64,000 nucleotides of DNA, from positions 32,001 to 96,000 of the forward strand of contig CBDAOC010000016.1 in the NCBI GenBank assembly GCA_965197925.1, given 5' to 3'. Position 1 is the first letter of the stretch, and each line of letters starts with the position of its first letter. The stretch comes from Nitrososphaerales archaeon (lineage in GTDB: Archaea > Thermoproteota > Nitrososphaeria > Nitrososphaerales > UBA213). A model generated the notes under the pieces. The model was not told the DNA's origin. It saw only the letters and a list, made by a program, of their open reading frames with translations, and ran no database searches. Shown here one piece after another: positions 3,863 to 33,889 of this stretch. A program made the position numbers and the translations under genes.

Positions 3863-3927
3863 TACGGAGCGAAGAATTTTGGGTTATTTTCTATACAATA
3901 CCTCCCATAATCACCAACTACTCCGTA
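3863..3927 (+). ncRNA. Y-RNA-like gene Y1 (minimal)
   Basis: TACGGAG-CGAAG...GGGTTATT...CAACTA-CTCCGTA; ends pair. Confidence 0.6.
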
Positions 3928-3940
3928 GATTTACTCCTAC

Positions 3941-4072
3941 TATTGTGGGTCGAATGATAATTAGTTACTTAAAAATGCTGCCACCATTACTCTCTCCCCA
4001 AAAAGAATAATACTTTTTATCAAATAAGAAGTATTAGAGACCAACCTAATTACCACTTACTTACCTACAATA
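3941..4072 (+). ncRNA. Y-RNA-like gene Y2
   Basis: TATTGTGGGT-CGAA...AGTTACT...CTT-ACCTACAATA; 10-bp terminal stem. Confidence 0.65.
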
Positions 4073-4246
4073 AAATGAATAATCCACTAATAGAAACACT
4101 CATGTACTTCCAAGACTTAATGTATAATCGCAACTACGAATTCTATGCAACAAATGGGTATTATGTGAGACTTCATATAAATGCAAACCCTACTCTAAAA
4201 AGAGAGGCGGCTAAAACATGGGTTGATATCAACGTAGAAAACAACA

Positions 4247-4323
4247 GAAGACGAGTCGAACGAGTATAGGTTATTATTACCATTTCAAATAAACACCCCT
4301 ATCTCATCAATTTATTCGTCTTC
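4247..4323 (+). ncRNA. Y-RNA-like gene Y3 (minimal)
   Basis: GAAGACGAGT-CGAA...GGTTATT...TTT-ATTCGTCTTC. Confidence 0.65.
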
Positions 4324-4349
4324 ATATACTAACATACTATTAAAAAGCT

Positions 4350-4424
4350 GCAGAGCCGAATGAAATGGGTTATTCTTACCATTTATAAGAGCCAACTCTA
4401 CCCCATCTCAAACACTTGTTCTGC
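4350..4424 (+). ncRNA. Y-RNA-like gene Y4 (minimal)
   Basis: GCAGAGC-CGAA...GGGTTATT...CTT-GTTCTGC. Confidence 0.65.
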
Positions 4425-4905
4425 CATCTAAGTATCACATTATACTCTGCGACACTAGCAGCCAAGCTAAGATAATGTCCACACGACATTGAGCACCGTT
4501 GAGCTAATGGTATTCATATAATCGCTTCGTCGCAGAACATAACGTGACACACATACACTTTGCATAAAACCCTACTAAAAATTCATCGTGAAAGAAACAT
4601 AGATCAAATAAAACACGAAATACAACGACTAATAAATCTTCAACATGCACTTCACCTGCACAACATCATACCACCATTAAAACGTAGACAAGATCGTATA
4701 ATGTCAAATATAGATTGATAACTCTTACAGATTATCACCACTTACTATGGGAATTTAGTAGAATAACATACAGCACACACTATGCTATTATTAGACACCC
4801 AATAAGTTGGTATCTACTAGATCTACATATTTTAATAGCAAAAGAACATAGAAAAATACACTGCAATATTTACCGATAATATGCAACAACAACAATAAAG
4901 GAGAC

Positions 4906-5289
4906 ATGACACAAAAATCCACAAGTCCTAATTTAGATCCAACGTATCAGGAGACAACACTACTTGCAGAAGTAACTTCAGATCCTATCCAAATAGTGGA
5001 CAAAAACAACAATGAAATTACATATTACCGCGTAGCGGTTAATCATTACTACACACACCCAACAACAAAAGAAAACAGAGTTTTCGTTAACAAATTTACT
5101 TGTGAAGTAAGAGGAGATGTTGCTAGCGACATGGCTGATAAGTATGTTCGCATAGGTGACATAGTATTAGTAGTAGGCAACATAGGTATTGATACAGGAA
5201 ATCGTAATAACAACGATAATGTAACAACTCCACAACTATTACTAAAAGTCCGTATACAAAAAATAATTCAAACATCCGACGCAGATTAA
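4906..5289 (+). CDS. second SSB-like OB-fold protein
   Basis: YRVAVNHYY...VRIGDIVLVVG pattern of the SSB family; no acidic tail. Confidence 0.65.
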   Translation: MTQKSTSPNLDPTYQETTLLAEVTSDPIQIVDKNNNEITYYRVAVNHYYTHPTTKENRVFVNKFTCEVRGDVASDMADKYVRIGDIVLVVGNIGIDTGNRNNNDNVTTPQLLLKVRIQKIIQTSDAD

Positions 5290-5321
5290 TTAACTAAATT
5301 ACAACATTACAAAGGAACAAA

Positions 5322-6014
5322 ATGCCAGTATCAGAAGTAAATATCACGGTCGACACTCGAGATTTCCTCGACTACAATCTAGTTGCTGGAGCCTATAGAG
5401 TCGCCCTTGAAAGAAATCAAGGACAAATAGGAATCTTTAACCTTGACCGCAAAACGTACGACGAATATGACGCCGCCGCCGCCGCAATAGGGTACGCATT
5501 GGAATCAATCCATGAACCCTTGGCAAACGAGAACATTTTCAATTACAACATCACTATCCATAGTGAGTACGGCCACGGCTTGTGGGCAACGCTCATGGAA
5601 AAGAAAGTACAGGCTTACGAGCATCTGTACCGAAAAATGAATGCCAATCCCAACGTAACCGTACGTACGGGACTTACCCGTCCAGGTAACAACCCATTGC
5701 GCAATCACACTTACATCGCAGCCATCAAGGGTTTGACCGATGTAGAACTTCCTGCAACCCTCGCTGACACCAACCCACATCAATGGTTCACCTTGCAAAA
5801 GGTATTCTCCGAATGTTATGGGCCTATCACCAGCATTGGCACCCCTGCAACCGACAACCTAGTAACCAACACGATGGAATTCGATCGCATCAAGCAGGAA
5901 ACTCCCGACGTTCACTATGCTCTTCGCCGGGCTGTTGAACATCTACAAAGCCGTCAGGGCGTAGGTAACTCTGAACAAAAGCAAGAGCTTAGTCTCACCG
6001 CTGCGGTTCAGTAA
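5322..6014 (+). CDS. hypothetical protein, possibly a degenerate RNase H-like N-terminal fold
   Basis: ITVD...AIGYALE...ITIHSE spacing resembles RNase HI; catalytic set incomplete. Confidence 0.35.
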   Translation: MPVSEVNITVDTRDFLDYNLVAGAYRVALERNQGQIGIFNLDRKTYDEYDAAAAAIGYALESIHEPLANENIFNYNITIHSEYGHGLWATLMEKKVQAYEHLYRKMNANPNVTVRTGLTRPGNNPLRNHTYIAAIKGLTDVELPATLADTNPHQWFTLQKVFSECYGPITSIGTPATDNLVTNTMEFDRIKQETPDVHYALRRAVEHLQSRQGVGNSEQKQELSLTAAVQ

Positions 6015-6063
6015 TAACCTACGAGCTGGGACACGTCCTAGTGTATACAGGAATACAAATCCG

Positions 6064-6072
6064 TGGTATACT
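6064..6072 (+). promoter_or_regulatory. extended -10 element (TGGTATACT) upstream of the tRNA array
   Basis: Matches TGnTAnnnT; 8 nt before tRNA-Tyr. Confidence 0.55.
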
Positions 6073-6080
6073 ATACAAAT

Positions 6081-6167
6081 GAGAGGGTCAGATAGCGGCA
6101 ATTCTAGTGGGCTGTAACCCCACCGACCGAGAGGTCTACGTTGGTTCGAGTCCAACTCCTTTCACCA
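6081..6167 (+). tRNA. tRNA-Tyr(GTA)
   Basis: GTGGG-CTGTAAC-CCCAC anticodon arm, long variable arm, TTCGAGT loop, ACCA. Confidence 0.9.
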
Positions 6168-6168
6168 T

Positions 6169-6242
6169 GGGCTAGTAGTCGAACAGAAAGACGCCGGGCG
6201 TGGAGTCCGGAGAAGGTAGTGCAATTCTATCCTAACCCACCA
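6169..6242 (+). tRNA. atypical tRNA-like RNA (anticodon TGG)
   Basis: Cloverleaf with CCGGG-CGTGGAG-TCCGG arm (G33), TGCAATT T-loop, ACCA. Confidence 0.6.
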
Positions 6243-6243
6243 C

Positions 6244-6278
6244 GGGCAAGAGACAGGGAAACCTTCTCTTGCCCACCA
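6244..6278 (+). ncRNA. ACCA-ended minihelix 1
   Basis: GGGCAAGAGA-C-AGG-GAAA-CCT-TCTCTTGCCC-ACCA. Confidence 0.65.
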
Positions 6279-6282
6279 ATCA

Positions 6283-6360
6283 TACCGGATAAGACTCAAA
6301 ATTAGAGCTATGAACCTGATACGTTCGTGCGTACTAGTTGAAATACTAGTTCCGGTGCCA
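6283..6360 (+). tRNA. atypical tRNA-like RNA (anticodon GAT), copy A
   Basis: ACCGGA/TCCGGT acceptor, extended TATGAAC-CTGATAC-GTTCGTG arm, TGAAAT T-loop, GCCA end. Confidence 0.6.
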
Positions 6361-6361
6361 T

Positions 6362-6395
6362 GGGAGAGTTCGGTTAACTCTGAGTTCTCCCACCA
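6362..6395 (+). ncRNA. ACCA-ended minihelix 2
   Basis: 12-bp stem GGGAGAGTTCGG/CTGAGTTCTCCC, loop TTAACT, then ACCA. Confidence 0.65.
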
Positions 6396-6400
6396 TTTAT

Positions 6401-6479
6401 GTGAGGTAAGTCTCAACATTAGAGCTATGAACCTGATACGTTCATGTGTGAGAGGTGAAAGTCCTCTACCCTCACCCCA
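6401..6479 (+). tRNA. atypical tRNA-like RNA (anticodon GAT), copy B
   Basis: GTGAGG/CCTCAC acceptor; shares ATTAGAGCTATGAACCTGATACGTTC with copy A; AGAGG-TGAAAGT-CCTCT; CCCA end. Confidence 0.6.
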
Positions 6480-6633
6480 TTTACTGACAGAACCCTATAC
6501 GCCTCTTCATCATGCGCACCAAATAGGGTCATATCGTACCTAAGTATTGTGCACAAATATTTAGGTGACACAAAAACCCTGTCCTGGCCTCTGAGTATTC
6601 GGAGACCAGGACATTAATTATACCCACTATAAG

Positions 6634-6671
6634 GGTAACGCGTTATTCCACCGTGATATACCCTTTTAAAA
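6634..6671 (+). promoter_or_regulatory. bipartite motif, copy 3
   Basis: GGTAACGCGTTATTCC 6634-6649, TTAAAA 6666-6671. Confidence 0.7.
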
Positions 6672-7936: not shown

Positions 7937-7981
7937 AATGTAGAACACGTGGCATATGTAACAAATGCTACAGGAAAGAAC

Positions 7982-8878
7982 ATGGCATCTCATGCACAAA
8001 AGAAAGAACTTAATTTAGGCGTAGGCCTGAGATATCCGGTCTTCGTGGGGTCAGGAGTAGTTTTATTTACTAGAGATATAACTTCAACTGACCCCGAGTT
8101 TCAAGTAATCCTACACGCCACAGCAACTGCTACACAGATGGCAGGCCCAAAAATACTCAGCAAAGAACCACCCAAAGCATCAGTAGGATACGACAAGAAA
8201 ACAAATAGAGTTATAACCTACTACAGTTATCCACAGGCGTGTATAACAACAGAAGAATGTATAGACATAGTAAACAGAATCAAAACACTACCGTATCCAG
8301 AACATATGTTAGACAGAACCAAACAACGAAATATTATTCTGAACTATGACTTCAATAACACATTAATAGATGATAAATGTTTAGTTCAACTACTTAACGC
8401 ACCTCACTTATTCTATGCAATAGAACTAACATGCAATAAAGTACCAGATAACTTAATAGATGTAAACACAAAAATACGCAAAATAAAAAAGTACCTACCC
8501 ACTACCAAAGTATGGTTAAAATTACCGCATCCAACAGACGTACAAGACACAACATATCTAACACAATTAACAGCACCAGATGCAATCGTACTAGGACAAG
8601 GACGCCCGGCCGTTAACGAAAATATAGAGACATTCAATCCTACAAAGCCCACCTTGGAAGCGGGAACACACTTATACCAGAGTACCTGTGCAACAGTAAT
8701 CTCTTGTCGAGAAAACATGCAAGTACCAATGATCGTAGGTGGCGGAATCCATACAGACGCACAAGTTATGGAACTATTAAAATACGGAGCATCAGGAGTA
8801 CAAGTAACTAGTGCTATATGTAAAAATTGGATGAACACTATATCTTTATACAAGAAACTACGCAAATCCTACCGATAA
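7982..8878 (+). CDS. divergent dihydroorotate dehydrogenase-like flavoprotein
   Basis: PVFVGSG, IELTC, VWLKLP, IVGGGIHT, GASGVQVTSA. Confidence 0.6.
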   Translation: MASHAQKKELNLGVGLRYPVFVGSGVVLFTRDITSTDPEFQVILHATATATQMAGPKILSKEPPKASVGYDKKTNRVITYYSYPQACITTEECIDIVNRIKTLPYPEHMLDRTKQRNIILNYDFNNTLIDDKCLVQLLNAPHLFYAIELTCNKVPDNLIDVNTKIRKIKKYLPTTKVWLKLPHPTDVQDTTYLTQLTAPDAIVLGQGRPAVNENIETFNPTKPTLEAGTHLYQSTCATVISCRENMQVPMIVGGGIHTDAQVMELLKYGASGVQVTSAICKNWMNTISLYKKLRKSYR

Positions 8879-8905
8879 ATAATAACAACAAAGAGGTGAT
8901 GTTAC

Positions 8906-16208: not shown

Positions 16209-16216
16209 CCAACGAT

Positions 16217-20514: not shown

Positions 20515-21063
20515 CCTATCTCCAAAAGAAATACGGAACAAATGGTATATTGCATTAGAAAGTGGATTTTTTATACCAACTGAACACCATCTACGTGTAC
20601 TTGTACTAGGAACCAAATACGAATACAGACACTCCGCAATAGGAGTACTCTGCGCCGTAAGTAAATTAGGTGAATTCTTACCAGAACCTACAGAACACAC
20701 AAACGGTAGACAGAAAGACAGTATAAAGCACATATTTCACCTATTCAACGGCAGAGATTTAAAAGCAGCTAACACAAAGTATAAAGAATACGAATTCAGA
20801 AATGCCCCTGCAAGTTTATTACGAGACTTAGGAATAGCTAAATACAGATGGGAAATAAACCATGTATCATCACAACATATATTTGCATATAGTAACATAC
20901 CTATAGAAATAAAAAATGAAATAGATTTGATCCAAACATATGGAAGATACAACTTCTCTATAGACAATATAATGACCAACACAGCTATACCACAGAGCAG
21001 AAAATTTCCTATACTAGGACAACTACTAAGAACAGTAGAAAAGAAATTTGCTGATTAATAAAC

Positions 21064-21537
21064 TTGCCTCAAAGAAAGAGAAGACGACCTTACAAGAAAC
21101 GCAATACAGTAGAGAAACAATTTCAAGAAGAAGTTATAGCCATAGGTAGAAATTACCAATGGCTAATGTATAGCGTACCAGATAGCCGATTAGCAACCGC
21201 TAAAGGCTACATAGATTTAACAATGCTGCATCCAGAGAAACAACTACTCATGGGTGCAGAGTTAAAAGCTCCTAAAGGTAAACTAACCAAAGAGCAAATA
21301 GTATGGATGACAGTATTATCACAATACTATCCAGTACACTTATGGAAACCGGAACACCTAGACACTATACAATATATGCTAAGACATGGTATAGTAACAG
21401 GTGATACACAGTATCCACCAAGCCGGTGTGGCGAAACGGCAGACGCGCTAGCCTTAGAAGCTAGTCTCGAAAGGGGTGTAGGTTCGACTCCTATCACCGG
21501 CACCAATTTTTCCCCCAAATTATTCTTCCTATCGTAA
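21064..21537 (+). CDS. VRR-NUC-like nuclease
   Basis: EKQFQ, GYIDL, AELKAPKGKLTKEQ; reading frame runs through tRNA-Leu. Confidence 0.75.
   Translation: MPQRKRRRPYKKRNTVEKQFQEEVIAIGRNYQWLMYSVPDSRLATAKGYIDLTMLHPEKQLLMGAELKAPKGKLTKEQIVWMTVLSQYYPVHLWKPEHLDTIQYMLRHGIVTGDTQYPPSRCGETADALALEASLERGVGSTPITGTNFSPKLFFLS
21422..21505 (+). tRNA. tRNA-Leu(TAG)
   Basis: CTAGC-CTTAGAA-GCTAG, long variable arm, ACCA. Confidence 0.93.
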
Positions 21538-21583
21538 ACTACGGTGGTCAATATAGGATATACAATAAACTTAGTAAAGAAAC

Positions 21584-22078
21584 ATGAAAGCACTAAAACT
21601 TATAAGAAACATAGGAATGTCAGTTGTAGGCGTAGCGGCAATTGCAGGTATCATAACCTTCAGTGCTGTACACAGTAACAATACTGTAAACGCACACGGC
21701 CCTGATCCTACTACTCCTCCAGTAATGGCCGGAGATCTAGCTCCTGACACACCAGTAGTACCAGTTGCACCTAAAGTAATGCCTGCCCCCGCCGCAGAAC
21801 TTACTATGGAACAGCAACTAGAAAATGACATGCGCGAAATATTTAATTCCAAGGGATTTAATAACAATTCTGTAATGTGTGAATATTCAGAAGGTAACGC
21901 ATCAGCTTCAATGGCTGCAATGTTACTAGCAACTGGTGAATCTTCATATAACGGACTAGACAATACAGCAGATCGCTGGACAGATGCTATGTCCGCAGAA
22001 CTATCATCACACGCTGAAGTAGCTATATGTGCAGGCTCAGCCAGCAAGCATAGCGTTTCAGGCATGTCTTTTAATTAA
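21584..22078 (+). CDS. secreted or membrane-anchored hypothetical protein
   Basis: N-terminal hydrophobic segment followed by a Pro-rich linker. Confidence 0.6.
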   Translation: MKALKLIRNIGMSVVGVAAIAGIITFSAVHSNNTVNAHGPDPTTPPVMAGDLAPDTPVVPVAPKVMPAPAAELTMEQQLENDMREIFNSKGFNNNSVMCEYSEGNASASMAAMLLATGESSYNGLDNTADRWTDAMSAELSSHAEVAICAGSASKHSVSGMSFN

Positions 22079-22087
22079 AAGCAAAAC

Positions 22088-22172
22088 ATAAGGGTCGAAT
22101 GAGAATACATTATTGAATACAGAAGAGAATTTTGTTCCGCAAAACCTTGTATTTTCCTTGACTTACCCTTAT
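22088..22172 (+). ncRNA. Y-RNA-like gene Y5
   Basis: ATAAGGGT-CGAA...CATTATT...ACTT-ACCCTTAT. Confidence 0.65.
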
Positions 22173-22186
22173 AATAGATCACACAT

Positions 22187-22262
22187 GGTGTTCGTAGTGT
22201 AATGGTTAACACGCTTGGCTGTGACCCAGGTAGTACGGGTTCAAATCCCGCCGATCACCCCA
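22187..22262 (+). tRNA. tRNA-His(GTG)
   Basis: G-1, CTGTGAC loop, CCCA end. Confidence 0.93.
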
Positions 22263-22336
22263 GGGGGCTTGGTATAATGAGATTACTTTGCTCTTGCACA
22301 GCAACAATATGGGTTTGACTCCCATAGCCTCCACCA
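22263..22336 (+). tRNA. tRNA-Ala(TGC)
   Basis: G3:U70, CTTGCAC loop, ACCA. Confidence 0.88.
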
Positions 22337-22557
22337 ATATTTAAAATGGAATTAACAGAAACACTTAAAAATAAAATAGATAAATCATCATATGAAACTC
22401 TTCTAAGACAATGGAGAATGTCTCCAATAGGATCCAGCCTATTTCAAGGAGAATCCGGAGAATACTTTAGAGAAACTATGATAGAAAAGAAAAACGAACT
22501 CCCTGACAATGGTGTTGCGGCTAGCAAAGCAATTGGATGGGAACGATAACACACCGT

Positions 22558-22631
22558 CTGGGTGTCGTATAACGGTAGTATATTTGCTTTGGAAGCATAA
22601 GGCGAGAGTTCAATTCTCTCTTCCCAGACCA
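22558..22631 (+). tRNA. tRNA-Pro(TGG)
   Basis: C1:G72, TTTGGAA loop, ACCA. Confidence 0.85.
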
Positions 22632-22718
22632 CAATGAGTCGAAGATTTTGGGTTATTTACTTAATCACCAACTCTTGAATTTGATACATTCAACCCATTA
22701 TCAATCCTTACTCATTGT
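22631..22718 (+). ncRNA. Y-RNA-like gene Y6
   Basis: ACAATGAGT-CGAAG...GGGTTATT...CTT-ACTCATTGT; starts at the CCA of tRNA-Pro. Confidence 0.7.
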
Positions 22719-23034
22719 GACTACTAAAAGAGAGCACTCATGGCTTGGACACGACAATTACTTTTCGTTACAGTAGGTGAAGAAGTACAATCTTCATTTA
22801 TAAATAAAATAATAGGTAACATAAATGAAGATGATGTTGCCAAAGTATCTGCTGCTGGAGATTTAATAGTCGCTACAGGACTAAACACAGGTGAAAAACT
22901 AGAAATAGGAGACGAAGGTGATCTACTAAAAAGTACAACATCATCTCCAAAAATAGAATGGGCTTCACCCACTCTATCAGGATCATTTGTAACTTGGTCA
23001 GATTTAAAAACTCACTTAGGAATTTAATATACAT

Positions 23035-23109
23035 GCATCAGTAACTCAGTGGAAGAGTATCGCTCTGATATAGCGAAGGCCGCTGGTTCGAGTCCAGCCT
23101 GATGTACCA
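23035..23109 (+). tRNA. tRNA-Ile(GAT)
   Basis: TCGCT-CTGATAT-AGCGA, ACCA. Confidence 0.93.
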
Positions 23110-23252
23110 TTACGAGTCGAAGATAATTGGTTAATTAAGGAATATTGTAAGAGTGTCTACGGGCATTGACAATTACTCTATACAAATGGTGTTGCACCTA
23201 TCACCTGTATAGTGACATTATAGGGCTTCTCAATTTCACAACTTACTCGCAA
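23110..23252 (+). ncRNA. Y-RNA-like gene Y7
   Basis: TTACGAGT-CGAAG...GGTTAATT...ACTT-ACTCGCAA; directly after tRNA-Ile. Confidence 0.65.
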
Positions 23253-23263
23253 TGAATTATTGC

Positions 23264-23339
23264 CCGTCGCTAGCTTAACAGGCAGAGCACAAGCCTCATA
23301 AGCTTGAGGGTCCCGGTTCAAATCCGGGGCGGCGCACCA
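23264..23339 (+). tRNA. tRNA-Met(CAT), possibly initiator-like
   Basis: CTCATAA loop, C1/C72 mismatch, ACCA; anticodon stem lacks the three consecutive G:C pairs. Confidence 0.85.
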
Positions 23340-23490
23340 AAGCCTTTTAGGACGTAGAAATTCGAGTGCGCACTTTAATTTCTATAAGAGAGTAAACGAA
23401 AGTATAACGCTAACACGAACTCTTAAATCATCATATGATGGCATGGATATACCATGCACTTGAGATGGACAAGTAATATTCCATCTTCAT

Positions 23491-23566
23491 GCAGGAATAA
23501 CTCAGCGGTTAGAGTTCCACTTTTACACAGTGGGGGCCGGGGGTTCGAATCCCTCTTCCTGTACCA
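23491..23566 (+). tRNA. tRNA-Val(TAC)
   Basis: CCACT-TTTACAC-AGTGG, ACCA. Confidence 0.93.
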
Positions 23567-23692
23567 TGTAGAGTCGATAGATATAGATTACTGCTTTCAA
23601 CAGAGAGGAGTGGGTTCGAGTCCCACTGCATCGTAAGATGTACAGTGTACAGGATGCACGCTTAAACCCTATGTCACCACTTACTCTACATG
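23565..23692 (+). ncRNA. YrlA-type Y RNA Y8 with tRNA-like domain
   Basis: CATGTAGAGT-CGA...CTT-ACTCTACATG; inside are a T arm GTGGG-TTCGAGT-CCCAC, a loop-closed acceptor TGCATC-GTAA-GATGTA and a D-like hairpin. Confidence 0.8.
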
Positions 23693-23696
23693 AATT

Positions 23697-23833
23697 GCTC
23701 CCCGTCTGATTTATTCAGACGGGTGTTTTAGGCGACACCCGAATGTGCTGGTATTCGGGTGGAGACGGCGATAGAGGGCAACCTCCGTCGCGCCGCCCAT
23801 CCAAGCTCGATGATGTGAAACTCTGGAGCACCA
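23697..23833 (+). ncRNA. GC-rich structured RNA candidate ending in ACCA
   Basis: Hairpins CCCGTCTGA/TCAGACGGG, CACCCGAAT/ATTCGGGTG, GAGG-GCAA-CCTC; GCTCC/GGAGC-ACCA ends. Confidence 0.45.
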
Positions 23834-23834
23834 T

Positions 23835-23911
23835 GCTAGGATAGCTCAGCCTGGTAGAGCATTACGCTGAAAACGTAGGTGTCGTTGGTCCAAATCCAAC
23901 TCCTAGCACCA
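23835..23911 (+). tRNA. tRNA-Phe(GAA)
   Basis: CTGAAAA loop, ACCA. Confidence 0.9.
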
Positions 23912-24380
23912 GACTTTTAAGATACTTACATCGTAACACTCGAGTATTATGTAAGTAGAGGAATACTCGTCGACTGCATTAAAATATAGCGCGAGTATAT
24001 TCTAAACAATACAGGGTGCCAACAATATAGTTGAGCACCCTGTAAGTGTAGAACGATAATAAAACTAATATGTAAATTACTAGGGCATAAATGGAAATCA
24101 TATCCCTACACTCACGCATACCCACCAACCCCAGGCCCTAGACGGCCTCTAAACAGGTATTGCGTTAGATGTGGAATAAATATAAAACATAAACAGCCCA
24201 AAACCCCAACATCACCACCATATACATTATAGTAGCCTAGCTTATAATATCTGCGCAGCTCTGTTATAAGTGAGTAAGAAGGGTCTCAAAAACTCCGTGA
24301 TCTCCCGTGAACTAGGGAAGTGAGGTAATAGAGAGACTGGTACGAGGATGCATAGCTACAATTGATCATCCTCACCTTGT

Positions 24381-24455
24381 GCGCCCGTAATTCAGTGGAA
24401 GAATAGTGGTCTTATATACCACCAGCCGTTGGTTCGAGTCCAACCGGGCGTACCA
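24381..24455 (+). tRNA. tRNA-Ile(TAT)
   Basis: GTGGT-CTTATAT-ACCAC, ACCA. Confidence 0.9.
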
Positions 24456-24937
24456 TTTAATTTAAACAGGAATTATGTTAAACACAATAAAAGATTTTCA
24501 AGACTTTTTAAAACAATTTGAAGACACTACACAAGTACGAATATACGTAGAAGTAGAAAATAGCTTATTCATGAGTAACTTATCAATTACCAATGGTACA
24601 ATAAAAGATAGAAACTCAGACGTACCATTCATAGTAGTATCTTTACCAGATTCTGCCATAAATTACATACACGAAAACATGTAACTAATGTTTACAGTAG
24701 AAGAAATGCGCGTATCAAATGCATTTATACAAATGATGCGGGATAAAAAAGTAACCCTTGAACTTGATCTAGAAACTGAAGACACTAATTATATCGAATT
24801 AGGTATAGTTTTTATATTTGATGACCCGAATGGCCCAGAAGAGTATAAAGTTGTAACAAAATATGATCATCATCAAGCTAAAGTAATAAGAGATACTTTA
24901 ACAGACTGGTTGTCTGACAACACAAAGTAAACAAACT

Positions 24938-25075
24938 AACTAGAGTCGACAGATTTAGGTTATTCGACTTGTAATCGGGCGGCCGTGGGTTCGAATCCCA
25001 CCCCTAGCTCCATATGCTAGGGTAGCTCAGCGGTAGAGCACCAAAACTACCCTATTTCACCAACTTACTCTAGTT
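24938..25075 (+). ncRNA. YrlA-type Y RNA Y9 containing a circularly permuted tRNA-Thr-like domain
   Basis: AACTAGAGT-CGAC...CTT-ACTCTAGTT; internal order is anticodon arm (TGT), T arm, CCCTAGC-TCCATAT-GCTAGGG, D arm. Confidence 0.85.
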
Positions 25076-25489
25076 CTTATTCATAAACATCAAAATGAGA
25101 TATTACATAGCGCATCTACATTGTGCATGTTTAAATCTAGCATACAGTGTAGACAGAAAAAATATATCAACTCTTCTACTTGATTTTCAACACTACATAA
25201 TACATCCAACAACATCAAGACAACATATAGAGGAACAGATAGATTATTACATAGAAAGAAAACATAGAATAGAGGTACTTTACCTATGATAGACTCTAGA
25301 TTAAATAACTTTATATCAAACATAAGTTTTATATGTAACAATATCTATAAAAGCTTACCATACAACTATAATGTACATGCAACGATGAGAATACTACTTC
25401 AAGCACAAGATTATATAATGCATCACTCAACAAACTACGTAAGTATATACGACACTATAGACGCCAGATACAACTAGTGTTACAATATA

Positions 25490-25588
25490 AAAATAGGACC
25501 GAAGCGTAAGGGTTATTGGTTTAATTAGGTTCGATCCCTAGCTGCTCACACGAGCATGGTTTCCCCTTAGCACACCTAGTCCTATTTT
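25490..25588 (+). ncRNA. Y-RNA-like gene Y10 with T-arm remnant
   Basis: AAAATAGGAC-CGAAG...GGTTATT...TAGG-TTCGATC-CCTA...CTA-GTCCTATTTT; TGTTACAAT extended -10 just upstream. Confidence 0.75.
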
Positions 25589-25720
25589 ATCTAGAGCCGA
25601 CGTTACTACATTATTGGATAAAAGTTCACATCGGTACATAAATGTATGTATCCACCTGAACAGAGAGGCTTCGAAACCTCCGCTCGAAAGAGTTTATGTA
25701 CAACAATACTAGTTCTAGAT
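25589..25720 (+). ncRNA. Y-RNA-like gene Y11 with T-arm remnant
   Basis: ATCTAGAGC-CGAC...CATTATT...GAGG-CTTCGAAA-CCTC...CTA-GTTCTAGAT. Confidence 0.7.
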
Positions 25721-25730
25721 ACAAAGATAC

Positions 25731-25806
25731 GGATGCGTAGTGTAGCGGCCAACATACTGCCCTGTCAAGGCATAGATCGCGGGTTCGAGTCCCGTCGCAA
25801 CCGCCA
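25731..25806 (+). tRNA. tRNA-Asp(GTC)
   Basis: CTGTCAA loop, GCCA. Confidence 0.9.
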
Positions 25807-26480
25807 TTAATATAGGAACATAAAACGAAGATACTAATACTTATATCTCTATTATTACTATTAGTAATAATATCTTGTGGAGAGACGCAACCAGTTAAAA
25901 ACCCAGACTATATATGGAACTCCAGTGATTCTATAAACAAATCTAAATTTGCATTCAACCTAGGATTTCGAGATTTAATAGTTAAATGTAAAAATAGACA
26001 TCAAACTATGTATATCGAACCTTATGGAATAGGACATACTTATACAATAGGTGGCCCAGGTATAGTTATAAAAACAAAAGGAGACTTTTGGTTAGGACTA
26101 GATCTATGGAAAACCTTCTGTGAAAAACAATAAACCACAATTATTTATATATAACCTAGAAAAAGTATCAAATAGAAACACGTGTCCCACATGTTATCAA
26201 GCAGATATAGCTATATATAAAATAGAACTACAAAATATGTCAACTAGCATTGACAATATGTGTGCTAAATGCACGGCACTATCTATCACAAATCTATTAA
26301 ACAAAAATAATCACTTCATACTTACACAGATCCATGAATAATTGCAACAGATACGAATGTCACATAAAAGGGTACTGTAACCACAAAAAATTAAATAACA
26401 AGTGGAAACGAATAGGTAATATGAACTTCGGACATAGAAAAACAATCGGAGACATGAGACCTACAGGAAAAGAATAATAT

Positions 26481-26555
26481 GCCGCCTTCGTATAACGGTT
26501 AGTACACAGCTCTTTCAAAGCTGCAACGCGGGTTCGACTCCCACAGGCGGTACCA
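26481..26555 (+). tRNA. tRNA-Glu(TTC)
   Basis: CAGCT-CTTTCAA-AGCTG, ACCA. Confidence 0.9.
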
Positions 26556-26952
26556 TTTAATGATACAACAACAAATGTTTCCTTTTAAATACAGCACAAA
26601 ATCCACACACACCTTCTGACAATCTACTCATAAATATTACATAGTAGTAGAGCAGCAACAAACACGGATAAGAAATCAATTAAAAGTACAAACATATAGA
26701 AACATTAGTCTTCTACTCGTACACACACAAATAGTAATAGAATCCTATTGCAGAAATTAACCGACATATATATATATTGATACACAGAGCACACTACCTA
26801 TATATAGACGATTGCTGCAAAGGAAACCTAACTTACAAGAAAAGCATAACTATATCAGAACTATTAATAAATATGTTTAAGTACGTCCCACATTTACCAC
26901 TAGCACAAAATGCTGCAATAACACCTAACGTTATATACACATAAGGAATCAA

Positions 26953-27432
26953 ATGACACCACAATTAAAGACTAAACTACAGACTCAGATAGGTAACGAA
27001 TTCGAAGCCGCAAATATGTACCTAGCTATGTCAAACTGGGCAGGTGTAGAAGGACTACCAGGATTTCAACATTGGCTAAGAAAACAGTACGAAGAAGAAC
27101 TAAGTCACGGACTTAAGCTTAATGATCACCTAGTAGACAGAGACATTAATCCAGTAATACCTAGCCACTACCCTATACATAACAAGTGGACAAGTGCATT
27201 AGACATAGCCGTCGCAGGCCTAACCGCAGAACGCGCTATGACTGTAGCACTAGAAGATTTATTTGCAGATGCATGGCTTACACGAGACTTTAAATCAGCA
27301 GTTATGCTACAATGGTTCATACAAGAACAGGTAGAAGAAGAAAAACTATTTACTGATCTTGTATACGCACTAGAAAATTGCGACAGCGGCAGCTTAATTC
27401 TATATGATATAGAGTTAGGTAAACGCAGTTAA
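26953..27432 (+). CDS. ftnA: ferritin
   Basis: EFEAANMYLAM, EELSH, LQWFIQEQVEEE ferroxidase motifs. Confidence 0.9.
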   Translation: MTPQLKTKLQTQIGNEFEAANMYLAMSNWAGVEGLPGFQHWLRKQYEEELSHGLKLNDHLVDRDINPVIPSHYPIHNKWTSALDIAVAGLTAERAMTVALEDLFADAWLTRDFKSAVMLQWFIQEQVEEEKLFTDLVYALENCDSGSLILYDIELGKRS

Positions 27433-27438
27433 CATCAA

Positions 27439-27513
27439 GCCGGTGTAGCTCAAAGGCAGAGCAAGTCCTTTGTAATGACTAGGTTGAGGGTTCGACTCCT
27501 TTCACCGGCTCCA
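27439..27513 (+). tRNA. tRNA-Thr(TGT)
   Basis: Anticodon TGT, G1-C72/C2-G71, U73-CCA. Confidence 0.9.
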
Positions 27514-28239
27514 TATAACATATGATATACAAACTTTTAATGACCACCTTATAAGGTGGTCATTCATCATTCTAGATACAAAGAACTTCAATGGCACGTA
27601 TATTTTATTTTACGTAGCACTTTAACCGCACCACCTAGTTTACTAGAAGTTAGTAAGGCACTACACTTTGAACGTATTGAAATAGAACGCCGCGTAGCAA
27701 GAGGCAACAAACTAATTTACATACAATAGCATATCATTGACAATTTAAAATACCAAACACTTGTACTACATACACGTTTTATATTACATACACATAGACT
27801 AACCCTTGCACCTTCTTTACTATTAATAAGCAAAGAAATACACATACAACATAATAGAAACAATAACCAAATAACGACAAAATGGCAGACCAATTTACCT
27901 CCAATGAAAAATGGCGTCAACTAGGCGACGACCCACAGATAACAGACTATATAAAGAATTTCGGTATACAGGCATACGAAACCAAATACTTGCCAGGCCG
28001 AATAACATATGGTCACGATTTAGTAGGAGACCCGTTAAAAAATCTAGCCGAAGAGACCAGCGATACCGTAGCATATATAGCTATGGCAATGGCTCAACAG
28101 CAAGAACTAATTACACAATGTAATGACAGTCGAAGCGTATTGAGTAGCATACTTACTATGCTAGACAGAATGACACCAAACAATTACCGTTTAACTAAAC
28201 TCAACATAAAAGAACTAATAGCTATACACTTAAATAATC

Positions 28240-28863
28240 ATGTCGACCTTACAGACACTTACCCAACAAATAAACGCATGTACTAAATGCCCCTTACACA
28301 CCACACGTACACATGCCGTACCTGGATACGGATCTAACCAACCGCATATACTGTTGATAGGAGAAGCTCCAGGCGCAGAAGAAGACGCTAGTGGATTGCC
28401 TTTCGTAGGTAGATCAGGGCAAGTACTGCAAGACATGTTCAGAAGATCGGGACTAACTAGAGAAATGGTTTACATAGCAAACACTGTAAAATGTAGACCA
28501 CCTGGAAACCGAGATCCTTTACCCGAAGAGAAGACAACCTGCGCTCCATATTTAGCGCAGCAAATAGAACTCTTAGATCCCACATTAATAGTTACTCTAG
28601 GCAGAGTATCCATGGAAAGATTCATAGTGGGAGAATCTATAACAAAGATACATGGAAAACTATATCGTAGTTTAATGCCAGATGAATTGATAACAAAAAC
28701 TGACAATAAAGTTACAAGACATGTATATCCTGTCTACCACCCATCTTACGCACTAAGACGCACTGAAAGCTACGAAGCCCTAGTAACAGATTTCACAGTA
28801 ATACCAGATATAATCAAACATCTAATAAGAGAAAACAATGCCCGCAGAGAAATTAGTAATTGA
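28240..28863 (+). CDS. udg: uracil-DNA glycosylase, family 4
   Basis: CTKCPL, IGEAPG, KCRPPGNR, YHPS. Confidence 0.93.
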   Translation: MSTLQTLTQQINACTKCPLHTTRTHAVPGYGSNQPHILLIGEAPGAEEDASGLPFVGRSGQVLQDMFRRSGLTREMVYIANTVKCRPPGNRDPLPEEKTTCAPYLAQQIELLDPTLIVTLGRVSMERFIVGESITKIHGKLYRSLMPDELITKTDNKVTRHVYPVYHPSYALRRTESYEALVTDFTVIPDIIKHLIRENNARREISN

Positions 28864-29030
28864 AATGATACAAGATAAAGAAACCGATAACAAGATGAGA
28901 TTCAAGGAACCTAATGCCTTACCCGGCAAGAACCTTCACAAGTCTCCAATTGGTACGCTTTATCTACCCAAGGATCCTTGGGGTAAGAAAACAAGAATAA
29001 GACTAACAGTCGAAGACATAAGTGAAGAAA

Positions 29031-29603
29031 ATGGTACTGAGTAATAGTAGCATGCAGCCCGCACTGCAACCATCTTCATCAAAACATATAGGAATGGACT
29101 ACCTAACAATTGAGCCTCTACTACCCCGCAGCATACAACCTGCAAGTGTAGACTTACACCTAGATAATAAAATTCTAGTAGAATTTGATAGATCTCAATT
29201 AATAACACCTGGCGTCACAACCCCAAACTACAGACATGTAGACATAACAGTACAACCATATATACTAGAACCAGGAGAATTTATACTAGGTAGCACTCTT
29301 GAAAAAGTAGGATTGAATAATTTAATAGCCGGAATAGTAGCAGGCAAAAGCTCTCTAGCAAGAGTAGGACTAACTGTTGCACCCGGATTTATTGATCCAG
29401 GTTTCCAAGGGAACATAACACTAGAAATATTTAACGCCTCTAACAATAGAATACGCTTGACGCATAAGATGGGTATCACCCAACTTGTAACATATATTCT
29501 AGCTGACCCAGCAACCAAAATATATGGCGACGAAGAACTTGGATCTAAATACCAGAACCAAGATGGCGTTACCATCTCCAGGAAGGATTTACCACCAACA
29601 TAA
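29031..29603 (+). CDS. dcd: dCTP deaminase
   Basis: IQPASVDL, GKSSLARVGL, IDPGFQGNITLE, KYQNQ. Confidence 0.92.
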   Translation: MVLSNSSMQPALQPSSSKHIGMDYLTIEPLLPRSIQPASVDLHLDNKILVEFDRSQLITPGVTTPNYRHVDITVQPYILEPGEFILGSTLEKVGLNNLIAGIVAGKSSLARVGLTVAPGFIDPGFQGNITLEIFNASNNRIRLTHKMGITQLVTYILADPATKIYGDEELGSKYQNQDGVTISRKDLPPT

Positions 29604-30469
29604 GATGACAACAATTATTTTTTGGGGTGCTAGTGATGACCTCGTAGAAGTAGAAGGCTGCTCATACGCAATCGACTACACAAACGAAGATGAACAAGTA
29701 TCTGGCCCAAACAACACCGCAGAATTCTCAGTATATAAAGATGCACTGTTTATGGTAAACGCAGGTACTGCTGGACAAATATTTGTAACCGCAACCTATA
29801 ACAACTTGGGATTATGGATATTTGCAGCACATCACATGCAAGACGAGTCCCCATACCCGACAGATTGGATAACCACGTTAACACAAGCTCCTAACAGCAT
29901 GCATTCAATGCAACTATCAATAGACGTACCTACTAGCAATGCCATACAAGTGCACAGAATAAAATAATGTTAACAGAACTATACACAACTTGGACAGATA
30001 GATTAACAGAGTTTACACCAACCTCTAAGCTATTAAGTACTATAAAAAATGAAGAACGCAAATATTGCTGTCTAGGTGTAGCTTGTGAACTATCTAAAAT
30101 GGGTACATGGTCATCTCGCGGCTATGTAATAAATAACAGATCACATATAACAGTACTACCACACCAAGTAAAAGAAGCACTAAACCTAGCTACAGATAGC
30201 GGTATGTTTAATATGAATGATTTATCAAAGTCTTTAAAAAAGAAACTAAATAAAGCTCTAACAGATCAAAACCATTATGACATATCCGACTACGAAACAA
30301 TCAGCTTAGCAAATATAAATGACTGCCTAGAAAACGATCCAACAGTATTTACACTCATACAAGCTATATTAAAAGAAGCTCCAGTTAGCTTATTCAAACG
30401 AGAAATAAACGAAAATCAAACCGAGCTATCTCTACCTTAAATATGGTAGAATAGATATATTACTACTGT

Positions 30470-30551
30470 CCCAGTGTGGCGAAATGGCAGACGCGAACGG
30501 CTTAAACCCGTTTCCGAAAGGGTGTGGGTTCGACTCCCACCATTGGGACCA
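30470..30551 (+). tRNA. tRNA-Leu(TAA)
   Basis: AACGG-CTTAAAC-CCGTT; extended -10 TGGTAGAAT upstream. Confidence 0.92.
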
Positions 30552-30720
30552 TTTCTATGTTAAAAAGATTAAATACTAAACTTGATTGTCTATTTGGATG
30601 CCATAGATGGATATATACAGATAGATATGACCCCGATTCTAGAAGAATATTTACAGAAAATAAAATGTGTATCAACTGTGGAAAAACAAAGATTTCATGG
30701 TAGTAACTATATAACAATAC

Positions 30721-30804
30721 GCCGGTGTGGCGAAATGGCAGACGCACATGTTTCAAAAACATGTCTCGAAAGGGGTGTGGGTTCGACTCCCTCCACCGGT
30801 ACCA
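30721..30804 (+). tRNA. tRNA-Leu(CAA)
   Basis: CATGT-TTCAAAA-ACATG, ACCA. Confidence 0.92.
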
Positions 30805-30819
30805 ATAACAAAGGAATAC

Positions 30820-31302
30820 ATGACAACTAACAACGAAAGACACTCTGCTCCACTAGCGGTATTAACCGTACTATTGTCAGCTGACAAAAACGAAGTATTA
30901 ATAATGCGACGAGGCCCAAAAGAATCCTTAGCTGGTATGTACACTATACCAGGTGGACACATGGAGTCTGGAGAAAATGTAATAGAAGCTGCTATACGTG
31001 AACTTTACGAAGAAGCAGGTGTAATTACATCACCTAGAGATTGTGAAGTAGTAGGTGTAATACACGCTACCGCTTCAACAAAAGAATATGTACAATTCAT
31101 AGTTCGCGTTCGCACATGGATAGGCATACCCTATATAGCAGAACCAAATAATTGTGATGACATGTATTGGTGCAATGTAAGACACTTACCACATAACATG
31201 TTAGGATGGCCTATAACAGGTATAGAAATGACATTAGACAGTGACGTATCGCACGATTGTCACCAATTCTTTGTAACCAATATAGGACAATGCGCAAAGT
31301 AA
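30820..31302 (+). CDS. Nudix hydrolase
   Basis: Nudix box GGHMESGENVIEAAIRELYEEAG; start placed downstream of the tRNA. Confidence 0.9.
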   Translation: MTTNNERHSAPLAVLTVLLSADKNEVLIMRRGPKESLAGMYTIPGGHMESGENVIEAAIRELYEEAGVITSPRDCEVVGVIHATASTKEYVQFIVRVRTWIGIPYIAEPNNCDDMYWCNVRHLPHNMLGWPITGIEMTLDSDVSHDCHQFFVTNIGQCAK

Positions 31303-32224
31303 CTCCGAAACAAAAACAACGACTTCGTAAACTAATCAACGCCCTAACGAATAACAAATATAAGCAGGGCGTTGAACTACTTTATAACACGACAACAACT
31401 GAATGGTGTTGGGGTGGTGTAGCAATTGACATATACTTCAACGATACTCATCAAGGATATTGGGAAGCCAAAGAAAACTCCAAATACGGAGTAGCTACAA
31501 TCACTCAAACCGGAGAGAAATATAAAGTCCACGTACCAATAGATGTACTAAATTGGTATGGACTAACCTTAGAAGAGCATAATATGCTTACCGATATGAA
31601 TGACACCGAACATACTTTCAAACAGATAGCTACTGCTATCACAAAAGAAAAACTAAAAGATACTCTTGTTACCACTACCACCGCCAAGGCTAAATAATGG
31701 TAATGGACGCAAACACAGTACAAGAATTAGCAAATGCCATATCACCAGAATATTTTATAAATGATAGATATGGTGGTCGCTCTTCTGTAGCATACCAAAG
31801 AGCCAAAGCACTAACAAGCGGTTATAACGCTAGAAAAGTAACAAGTACAAAACGAAAACTACAACACATAATAGGTACACTAGCTCTAACAGAAGGATGG
31901 CTAGCTAGTACATGGCATGACACCGGCCATGGTATAAGAGGACAAAGTCCTGTAGACTATTATTTCGACATGACACTCGCTAAACACGAGTGTATGTTTT
32001 TTGTATACCTACACAATGGTAGAGTAATAACTCTAAATGCACAACAAAGACAATGGTGTGCATATGCTCAGAATGTAGGAATAACTACACAACACTGGAC
32101 TCTAGATAACATAGAGGCCATATACCGTCTACTACGAACACCGTACCCTACTATGAACATAGTAGATGCAATTATCCCACCTCCAAACATACACTAACAA
32201 ATAAACACAGGAGAAACACAACTT

Positions 32225-33889
32225 ATGTCATATTTGACACAAGCATTCAACACACCAGCTCCCCAGCGTGAGCCAGAGATGGGGCGTGAACAAGACCAAG
32301 TAAAGAACAATGCAGGCGGATACGTATTCCCTGTAACCCCAGAAATACAGCTAGATCGCTTCCTAATCCTAGGTAGCGAAGGTGGTAGTTATTACGCTAG
32401 CGAAAGAGCCTTAACCCTAGAGAACGCTAAGAACGCTCTCAACATGGTAAAAGGTGAAAAAGGTATACAAGTAGTCAAGAGAGTTGTAGAACTCGCTCAT
32501 GGCCGTGCCCCAAAGATAGGCCCACCCCTATTCGTATTGGCTATGGCTGCTTCCTATGGCAACACTGACACCAGAACTGTAGCATTCGAAGTTCTTCCAC
32601 AGGTAGCTCGCACAGCAAGCCATCTGTTCCAGTTCATCGAATATGTAGACAGCATGCGTGGTTGGGGCAGAGCCTTGAAGAATGGTATCAACAACTGGTA
32701 CACATCCAAGACTCCAGAAAACCTAGCCTACCAGGTTGTAAAGTACCGCACCAGAAACTCTTGGAGCCACCGAGACGTACTACGAAAGACCCACCCAATG
32801 AGCTATGATCACAACAACCTATTCGCCTACTTGACCAACAAGGCATGGACCGAAGAGGATTCGTTGAGCATCGTAAAGGCATATGAAGCAGCGAAAACCA
32901 TGGATAGCAAGGAACTTGTTGAACACATCACCAAGCATAGCCTAACCTGGGAAATGCTTCCTACTGAATCCCTACGCGACATGGAGGTATGGCGTGCCAT
33001 GTTACCCGACATGCCTGCCACTGCACTACTTAGAAACTTAGGACGTTTGACCCGCCTAGAACTGCTCAAGCCCCTAAGCGATGAAGCTAGCCAAGTCGCC
33101 GCGAAGTTCTCTAGCGCAGAGTGGGTAAAATACGGTCGTCTGCACCCCTTCAACATCCTTTTGGCGTATTACACATACATCAGAGGACAAGGATACCAGA
33201 GTCGTAACAGTGGCAGAGGCAGAAGTGCCTTCAGTGACCCTTACGGCACTCACAAGCCAGACTGGGAACCAGTACAGTCTGTAGTAGATGCACTTGAAAC
33301 TGCATTCAACCATTCTTTCCAAAATGTAGCACCTACAGGACAAAAGATCTATGTAGGACTGGACGTGTCCGGCTCTATGAGAGCAGAGATCATGGGAACT
33401 CCTATCTCTGCACGTGAAGGTGCCGCCGCACTGGCTTTGTACGTTGCAAAGACAGAGCCTAACTTCCACGTCGCTGCATTCTCAGCTGGTACTCAGTTTA
33501 GTACAAGAAGATTTGTTTCCAGAGGTACTGCAATGGTACCAATGGACTTCTCTTCAAAGGACTCTCTCCAGGACATACTCAGAAAGACAGAAAGACTACC
33601 ATTCGGTGGTACAGACTGTGCTCTTCCAATGATGGATGCTCTTGAAAAGAAGATCGAAGTAGATTGCTTCCTAGTACTAACTGACAGTGAGACATGGGCA
33701 GGCCCCATCCACCCATTCAGAGCCCTAGAAAAGTATCGTGCCGAAATGAATCGTCCAGCTAAGCTGGTGGTTGTAGGCATGACCTCAAACGAGTTTAGTA
33801 TTGCTGATCCTAGTGATGCAGGTATGCTAGACATAGTTGGATTCGACGCTGCAATGCCTAGGCTGATCAGTGATTTCATAACCAACTAA
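32225..33889 (+). CDS. rsr: Ro60 / TROVE-domain RNA-binding protein (Rsr)
   Basis: NNAGGYVF, RFLILGSEGGSYY, KYRTRNSWSHRDVLR, vWA motifs DVSGSM, GGTDC, TDSETW, GMLDIVGFD. Confidence 0.96.
   Translation: MSYLTQAFNTPAPQREPEMGREQDQVKNNAGGYVFPVTPEIQLDRFLILGSEGGSYYASERALTLENAKNALNMVKGEKGIQVVKRVVELAHGRAPKIGPPLFVLAMAASYGNTDTRTVAFEVLPQVARTASHLFQFIEYVDSMRGWGRALKNGINNWYTSKTPENLAYQVVKYRTRNSWSHRDVLRKTHPMSYDHNNLFAYLTNKAWTEEDSLSIVKAYEAAKTMDSKELVEHITKHSLTWEMLPTESLRDMEVWRAMLPDMPATALLRNLGRLTRLELLKPLSDEASQVAAKFSSAEWVKYGRLHPFNILLAYYTYIRGQGYQSRNSGRGRSAFSDPYGTHKPDWEPVQSVVDALETAFNHSFQNVAPTGQKIYVGLDVSGSMRAEIMGTPISAREGAAALALYVAKTEPNFHVAAFSAGTQFSTRRFVSRGTAMVPMDFSSKDSLQDILRKTERLPFGGTDCALPMMDALEKKIEVDCFLVLTDSETWAGPIHPFRALEKYRAEMNRPAKLVVVGMTSNEFSIADPSDAGMLDIVGFDAAMPRLISDFITN

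Follow-up and report, generated by a model that had tools for sequence, protein, structure and literature searches.

What use might a phage with one Ro60 protein have for eleven different Y-RNA-like genes? The question is raised by a stretch of 64,000 nucleotides (the window), bases 32001–96000 of contig CBDAOC010000016.1 (C16; 150,385 nt) in a 2.9-Mb assembly catalogued as a Nitrososphaerales archaeon (GCA_965197925.1). C16 is, to judge from its genes, an uncultured tailed phage. An initial annotation of the window had described eleven intergenic elements of one architecture together with a full-length Ro60/TROVE gene. All eleven are present as described and lie on the plus strand, as do the Ro60 and tRNA genes. 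On comparative sequence evidence we predict that they very probably encode Y RNAs for the Ro60 that the phage itself carries.

The shared scaffold and its probable Ro60 partner

Each element is built on a scaffold in which an outer stem leads into CGA opposite CUU or CUA, followed by a second stem ending in G, the sequence UUAY, a payload, and the return strands. The terminal stem and the CGA motif are found in 11/11, the stems having 7–10 bp with one mismatch in the element at 23108. G(T/C)CGA is present in nine elements, TTA lies 9 nt from CGA in seven copies and 10 nt away in four, and the base triplet before the 3′ strand is CTT seven times, CTA three times and TTT once. These observations agree with the initial annotation, in which the ends were said to pair over 7–10 bp, G(T/C)CGA to be the usual form, a TTA motif to follow CGA after about 10 nt, and CTT/CTA to precede the 3′ strand in ten of eleven copies. 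YUAY follows the stem in 10/11 (UUAU in eight and UUAC in two, the remaining copy having UUAA).

A descriptor of this scaffold matches 11 times in the window, compared with a mean of 0.14 and a maximum of 2 in 100 dinucleotide shuffles, not at all in the other 86 kb of C16 and five times in 2.76 Mb of other contigs, a test that is partly circular as the descriptor was written from the wording of the initial annotation. The inner stem, which extends the shared architecture beyond that of the initial annotation and which the detector never required, provides a non-circular test of pairing. In the window, inner-stem pairing reaches 5.41 with an element's own partner strand, as against 4.28 ± 0.30 (maximum 5.2; 300 permutations) with the strands of other copies, and for those of 266 modules from other genomes that are at least 60 nt long the values are 5.97 and 3.94. 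Covariation over 83 fitted matches scores 0.77 compared with 0.25 after shuffling, a figure in which the outer stem is circular and the alignment is itself fitted. The folding z-scores of the eleven elements are inflated because element boundaries were set by the stems.

A covariance model, R1, was trained on 49 short modules, all from other genomes. It places ten of the eleven elements among its top 11 matches in the window, eight of them at E ≤ 0.03; the element at 25588 is absent at E ≤ 5, and one other match, at 46061, ranks 10th. On the 2.9-Mb assembly it gives five matches at E ≤ 1, all from these elements. A new model had been suggested at the outset as a check on the family, and this one, built without the phage, recovers it but for one member.

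Across genomes the module tracks Ro60. An initial, loose descriptor gave too much noise where loci were GC-rich and was tightened; in 240 loci around Ro60 homologues, some of them duplicates and viewed before the descriptor was tightened, 228 modules lie on the Ro60 strand and nine on the opposite strand, with about 11 per strand in shuffles. Scanning IMG/VR by DNA motif only gave 123 loci, of which 43 are stem-closed. Where such stem-closed loci are at least 15 kb long, Ro60 lies within 10 kb in 19/22 and elsewhere in the record in the other three, one of which has its Ro60 about 30 kb from the module, as in this phage. The reversed-pattern control has Ro60 at 0/38 loci (1/120 at any length). 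At E ≤ 0.01, R1 matches 55 of 57 viral records with canonical Ro60, or 33 of 35 once 17 training records and five motif-found records are dropped, and 0/22 records in which Ro60 gives a weak match or none, these last being arbitrary viral records rather than relatives. R1 finds a partner RNA for nearly all of the Ro60 phages surveyed, and in those cases that were checked most of these RNAs score under the current Rfam cut-offs. The survey for co-occurrence that the initial annotation had called for, made here on viral records, points the same way as its proposal that these are Y-RNA-type modules docking on Ro60. A scan for this phage's own motif variant returned mostly chance matches and was set aside; a closed stem is present at two of its 94 loci, of which one is accompanied by Ro60 and the other (L513) lies in a record without Ro60 in which R1 finds nothing.

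The Ro60/Rsr gene (32225–33889, plus strand) encodes 554 amino acids with TROVE and vWA domains and, as first annotated, is full length. Pfam matches are TROVE (PF05731; 154 bits, 8e-45) and vWA_Ro60 (PF25045; 208 bits, 1e-61), and residues 23–551 align to the solved human, Xenopus and Deinococcus structures. The match to human Ro60 (E 5e-105) marks the protein as of the canonical type, and the NCBIfam Rsr equivalog scores 427.9 bits, under its cut-off of 900. His190, invariant in eight clade members, aligns to His187, which is reported to contact Y RNA (PMC4030889). Residues about 325–345 form a basic, Gly-rich insertion relative to the solved structures, of a length that varies within the clade.

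Payload classes and genomic surroundings

The elements lie in two clusters, four at 3863–4424 and seven in or just before a tRNA array (22088–25721); no further elements were found on C16 outside them. In the first cluster, Y RNA 1 (3863–3927; 65 nt) is minimal, carries an AGCGA variant and matches the sbRNA family RF01656 at 29.6 bits, Y RNA 2 (3941–4072; 132 nt) has a long A-U hairpin as payload that is not tRNA-like, and Y RNA 3 (4247–4323; 77 nt) and Y RNA 4 (4350–4424; 75 nt) are again minimal, the former being the top R1 match (37.3 bits) and the latter matching the animal Y_RNA family RF00019 at 22.4 bits. No tRNA is present within 1.6 kb of these four.

The array (22188–25806, plus strand) encodes tRNAs His, Ala, Pro-like, Ile, Met, Val, Phe, Ile and Asp with six Y RNAs interleaved, and Y RNA 5 (22088–22172; 85 nt, short) is its first gene, ending 15 nt before tRNA-His. 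Y RNA 6 (22630–22719; 90 nt, short) starts at the CCA of a tRNA-Pro(UGG)-like gene (22558–22631), its stem covering the CA. Y RNA 7 (23108–23254; 147 nt), with two hairpins, starts at the CCA of tRNA-Ile(GAU) and ends 9 nt before tRNA-Met; its fold is the weakest of the set (z 0.0) and its R1 match is weak. Y RNA 8 (23565–23692; 128 nt) starts at the CCA of tRNA-Val and is tRNA-derived, with an anticodon arm (UUC, 23589–23605), a T arm (23609–23627) and a short closed acceptor-like hairpin, but no clear D arm. Y RNA 9 (24938–25075; 138 nt) contains a complete, circularly permuted tRNA-Thr(UGU) with anticodon (24963–24979), T (24985–25001) and D (25025–25039) arms, a variable loop, and a 7-bp acceptor stem with U73-CCA in its closing loop (25002–25022). 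Y RNA 10 (25490–25588; 99 nt) has a T arm (25526–25540) and a closed acceptor-like hairpin without anticodon or D arm. It abuts Y RNA 11 (25588–25721; 134 nt), which has three hairpins, ends 9 nt before tRNA-Asp and is the element missed by R1. In all, three elements begin at the CCA of the upstream tRNA and three end 9–15 nt before a tRNA. Scans for sigma-70 promoters gave chance-level counts (45 against 37.1; 12 against 14.2).

The payloads fall into five that are minimal (65–90 nt, YrlB-like), three with multiple hairpins and no tRNA features, and three that are tRNA-derived, so the range from almost nothing to a complete tRNA mimic given in the initial annotation is borne out by the five minimal copies and the permuted tRNA at 24938. 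The copies are not recent duplicates, as the best pairwise local score is 42 compared with self scores of 130–294. An antisense-guide role was considered and rejected, the longest payload matches to the phage genome being at shuffle level once T-arm matches are set aside.

Eleven is the largest number among the records examined, but it lies on a continuum. In whole-record counts over 50 records out of 80 viral Ro60 loci there are 128 motif matches compared with 46 for a backward control, most records having 0–4, whereas 20 records without Ro60 give 13 matches compared with 21. Two IMG/VR records hold ten (G045) and eight (G047) same-strand modules, and G046 and G071 hold six each. The counting pattern ends in C and so misses the T-ending variant of this phage, which makes the counts elsewhere lower bounds. 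The initial annotation had held the family to be larger than any known in a single genome; it does top the records examined, but with ten and eight modules in two other records it is not singular. Table S2 of Chen et al. (2014; PMC4201824) gives one YrlA per phage, except for three in CcrColossus. We found no literature on expanded phage Y RNA families, although reviews or supplementary tables may list larger numbers. Phage Ro60 with Y RNAs is known already; what we have not found in print is a family as large and as dispersed as this one, or the class with anticodon arms described below.

C16 carries terminase, portal and head protease genes, 28 tRNAs by ARAGORN, bacterial-type PolA, DnaN and SSB, and TyrRS, as well as Macro, NADAR, NAMPT and NUDIX genes, which are frequently tied to conflict systems. 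No short DNA matches joining C16 to the rest of the bin were found, so that it may be mis-binned in the archaeal assembly; a search with the phage Ro60 as query found no Ro60 in 40 relatives of the bin. At the protein level seven Ro60 homologues (54–88% identity) and eight terminases (66–86%) indicate a small phage clade around C16. Single-protein scans of viral contigs (Ro60, PolA) found no DNA of close relatives, and the only loci brought up by alignment scans, whether in viral, genome or metagenome contigs, have about 33–49% identity. Positions 22000–26000 of the window are matched without a difference by a Logan contig that probably derives from the source sample, and contigs of runs X3 and X4 hold no informative variants within the Y RNA elements.

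Several other features were seen along the way. Close to the Y RNAs are a GC-rich, multi-branched element of 140 nt (23696–23833, between Y RNA 8 and tRNA-Phe; 6-bp closing stem, CCA end, z −4.0) with no Rfam match, a three-hairpin junction closed by a long stem and lying immediately downstream of Y RNA 4 (4432–4550; z −4.2, without the Y motif), and a run of five hairpins between tRNA-Met and tRNA-Val (23354–23490; z −3.7). A tRNA-Pro(UGG)-like gene at 6169–6242 (G33, aberrant T loop, CCA end; 40.8 bits with Rfam tRNA) is missed by ARAGORN and is followed by two degenerate tRNA-Ile(GAU)-like genes (6283–6359 and 6400–6478) with a common 26-nt core, non-canonical T loops and cloverleaf-like folds, neither of which has an Rfam match. 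Two further tRNA-like sequences are seen by Rfam only, namely the Pro(UGG)-like gene at 22558–22631 (53.9 bits) and 39167–39243 (38.6 bits, no canonical anticodon arm). The window also contains a class II ribonucleotide reductase on the minus strand (40842–42614), surrounded by plus-strand genes and matched as three separate stretches, and two dihydroorotate-dehydrogenase-like TIM-barrel genes (7949–8878 and 36418–37326). On C16 outside the window is the phage tyrosyl-tRNA synthetase (L580:1836-2957).

Known Y RNAs and the anticodon-bearing class

The elements resemble Yrl RNAs in design, yet most copies fail strict YrlA tests. Like YrlA and YrlB of Salmonella Typhimurium, Mycobacterium smegmatis and mycobacteriophages (PMC4201824, 10.1101/312249), for which GNCGAAN0-1G and YUAY are the described motifs, they have GNCGA, YUAY and a closing stem; they lie on the Ro60 strand and are co-located with tRNAs, the minimal copies resemble YrlB, and 24938 has the permuted T–acceptor–D order. 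They differ in that there are eleven rather than at most three per phage (Table S2 of Chen et al.), in that eight of them lack a tRNA domain, in having a canonical anticodon arm where a variable loop was described, and in their position: all lie 6.5–28 kb from Ro60, the nearest at 6.5 kb, and 0/11 within about 4 kb, the distance within which the described YrlA RNAs are found. Both strands of the docking helix are conserved here, whereas only the 5′ strand was recognisable in the Salmonella and M. smegmatis RNAs according to Chen et al. (PMC4201824). The Rfam YrlA model (RF02553) has its sole match at 24955–25071 (35.3 bits, E 1.2e-4; gathering score 69), so the YrlA covariance search proposed in the initial annotation takes 0/11 elements to the cut-off, and a full YrlA-type tRNA domain is present in one of them.

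The whole scaffold aligns, on both strands but below cut-off, to animal Y RNAs (RF00019) and nematode sbRNAs (RF01656), which are likewise multi-member families with varied loops. Elements common to the animal Y RNA in the Rfam alignment are CCGAA, an inner stem ending GGGUUAU, and CCCA...ACUUG on the 3′ side. These models score 22.4, 15.2 and 29.6 bits in the 3840–4440 cluster, with a cut-off of 38, and have no match in 21000–34000. Unlike animal Y RNAs, the elements have no U-rich Pol III end, and some carry tRNA-derived payloads. Deinococcus radiodurans, with Rsr, Yrn1, Yrn2 and RNAs a, b and d (RYPER), also has several RNAs per Ro60 in a polycistronic arrangement with a tRNA; it differs in being cellular, in its two bona fide Y RNAs beside rsr, in another order of T and D arms and in PNPase activation. 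In Thermus phage phiLo (PMC12135203; PDB 9KOP, 9L5Y) a phage Ro60, distantly related to the present one (E 4e-4), is reported to bind its CGAA-bearing RNAs Yrl1 and Yrl2, but these two are encoded directly upstream of Ro60 where the eleven here are dispersed.

Among the elements the tRNA-like domain in T–closed acceptor–D order is complete in one (24938), partial in two and absent in eight. When the halves of 24938 are re-ordered by script, ARAGORN calls tRNA-Thr(UGU); no single phage tRNA is evident as its parent. Canonical anticodon arms are present in 24938 and 23565, and the class extends to other genomes: a T arm occurs in 96 of 277 unique modules, and 21 of the 55 T-arm modules with room before the T arm have a canonical anticodon arm (mean 1.6, maximum 8 in 1000 shuffles), with U33 and a purine at 37 in 22/33 seven-base loops. 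Wang et al. (10.1101/312249) describe YrlA as lacking an anticodon loop and read the long loops at this place as class II variable arms; the anticodon-bearing modules fit the dimeric-tRNA origin cited there. We found no literature on anticodon-bearing Y RNAs, although reviews or supplementary tables may hold examples.

A permuted tRNA domain with an anticodon arm is also seen in further Y RNAs of other genomes, at L040:12646-12939, L035:5186-5313, L168:9542-9672 and L061:690-826, the L168 module having CCA in its acceptor loop too, and at L028:9529, L076:9174, L094:11678 and L129:11960 ARAGORN calls a tRNA of normal order inside the module.

A proposed role for the Ro60 particles

A plausible explanation, to which we assign a probability of about 0.5, is that the eleven RNAs are Ro60-stabilised decoys and tethers directed against host PNPase and anticodon nucleases. 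The layout of the array suggests that the Y RNAs would be transcribed together with tRNAs and released for the most part by the tRNA processing of the host, for which the Yrn2-tRNA-Yrn1 transcript of D. radiodurans is a precedent (PMC4201824). By homology, Ro60 would then bind the scaffolds one at a time and protect each RNA. The initial annotation had pictured one ring loaded with about a dozen RNAs; the phiLo structure by cryo-electron microscopy has one RNA per protomer (PMC12135203), which argues instead for a population of different particles. Least certain is the last step, in which these particles act in counter-defence, the minimal and hairpin payloads occupying host PNPase or other RNases and the tRNA-derived payloads baiting tRNA-cutting nucleases with elbows and with anticodon arms of host type (UGU for Thr, UUC for Glu), while the phage's altered tRNAs would sustain translation. 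In keeping with this, ordinary tRNAs of the phage already serve both of these anticodons. Reported precedents are the dampening of host PNPase in vitro by phiLo Ro60-Yrl (PMC12135203) and the countering of ppl defence by the Ro60-like gp130 of Bas63. tRNA-Thr(UGU) is reported to be a main target of AriB, at a UAAUC site, and of P2-OLD, and resistant phage tRNAs-Thr to have an altered motif and a shorter anticodon stem. The ordinary tRNA-Thr(UGU) of this phage (27439–27513, plus strand) has U32, a C31-U39 mismatch and UAAUG, whereas Y RNA 9 has retained UAAUC, in a stem of 5 bp that includes two G-U pairs; this is what one would expect to see if a bait stood next to an escape variant. More tentatively, Ro60 could be a general chassis for interchangeable Y scaffolds that mimic the targets of host defence, with complete permuted tRNAs whose cleavable host-type arms lure anticodon nucleases that the altered phage tRNAs escape; the YrlA 'variable loop' would then often be an anticodon arm, and the animal-type scaffold would be standard in Ro60 phages.

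A number of observations weigh against the decoy explanation. For eight of the 11 payloads there is neither a tRNA feature nor an assigned target, and the anticodons in modules of other genomes are diverse, extending beyond known nuclease targets. The Thr contrast is a single case, read against Escherichia coli enzymes, which the host may not share; the Glu loop, by comparison, is identical in the Y RNA at 23565 and the working phage tRNA, and AriB is reported to require distal tRNA contacts too. In the ensemble of naked 24938 RNA the anticodon arm is disfavoured, with a pair probability of 0.07, and the cloverleaf folds at −37.9 compared with −43.2 kcal/mol. GNCGAAN0-1G is exact in 6/11 elements, the remaining five deviating at one or two positions, and single changes in CGAA weaken Ro60 binding 3–4-fold in phiLo (PMC12135203). 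The dispersal over 6.5–28 kb also departs from the 4 kb or less of described YrlA.

The same scaffold could serve a housekeeping function, the Y RNAs gating Ro60 and tethering it to exonucleases, or to a ligase and phosphatase, in a quality-control and repair platform that matures or repairs phage tRNAs, as proposed for rsr-yrlBA-rtcBA and RYPER. This is the established role of bacterial Ro60 and Y RNA, 7/11 elements lie in or just before the tRNA array, and C16 carries a PNK-type phosphatase adjoining an ATP-dependent ligase (L581:1605-3221, outside the window). However, the ligase scores as a DNA ligase (147.8 bits) rather than an RNA ligase (26.2 bits, below cut-off), RtcB was not found on C16 and has its sole match on another contig, and eleven unrelated payloads are unexplained where the described systems need one or two RNAs; we consider this role unlikely, though deserving of real weight. 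It is less likely again that the family is redundant and drifting, with few working copies and neutral payloads on a module readily captured between tRNA genes. The variant motifs of five copies, the weak R1 match of 23108 and the missed 25588, and the 0–4 motif matches of most Ro60 phages would be expected in that case, but both stems are kept with different sequences in every one of these unalignable copies, which argues for long selection on each, and 24938 and 23565 retain precise tRNA geometry. That the elements might not be Ro60 ligands at all, but intergenic hairpins or decayed tRNA genes sharing a motif by chance, is hardly credible, as none of the controls (shuffles, opposite strand, reversed pattern, records without Ro60) yields the module, notwithstanding that no element reaches the gathering score of an Rfam family as a Y RNA and that 23108 folds no better than z 0.0.

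Two further explanations turn on tRNA itself. As cis-acting processing spacers, the structures would mask tRNA CCA ends in the precursor until released by Ro60 or a nuclease, and in 3/3 tRNA-abutting elements the outer stem does extend by UG over the CA of CCA (UG frequency 0.047). Among the 277 unique modules there are 17 whose start is no more than 25 nt from the end of a tRNA called by ARAGORN, and 27 whose end is no more than 20 nt from a tRNA start, but of the modules that abut tRNAs in other genomes 0/15 overlap the CA in full, a single one having an overlap of 1 nt. Such spacers would account neither for the anticodon-bearing payloads nor for the four elements at 3863–4424, so that we regard this as improbable. 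Y RNA 9 might alternatively be a working permuted tRNA-Thr, in which RNase P opens the acceptor loop, CCA is exposed, and the RNA is charged by threonyl-tRNA synthetase (ThrRS) and decodes ACA while the Y stem holds the halves together. The ARAGORN call and the 7-bp acceptor stem with CCA in its loop fit, as do G1-C72, C2-G71 and U73, which we take to be ThrRS identity elements; in 12 phage genes Thr is most often encoded by ACA (246/549). M. smegmatis YrlA, with a 7-bp stem, is reported to be cut by RNase P and given CCA (PMC4201824). An ordinary tRNA-Thr(UGU) is already encoded, however, a long stem with Ro60 bound to it at the D/anticodon junction would be expected to collide with the ribosome, and processing and charging could occur without decoding. 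As it would also cover only one of the eleven elements, this is a very unlikely account.

Little is settled about what bacterial and phage Y RNAs do and on what they act, the effector of YrlA being called unknown by Wang et al. (10.1101/312249). One genome with one Ro60 and eleven natural payloads is a ready-made test set. The anticodon-bearing class conflicts with the published statement that YrlA has no such loop, speaks for descent from tandem tRNAs and ties Y RNAs to the tRNA-cleavage arms race (PARIS, OLD). If the eleven RNAs are indeed Ro60-stabilised decoys, they would constitute a modular RNA-based counter-defence.

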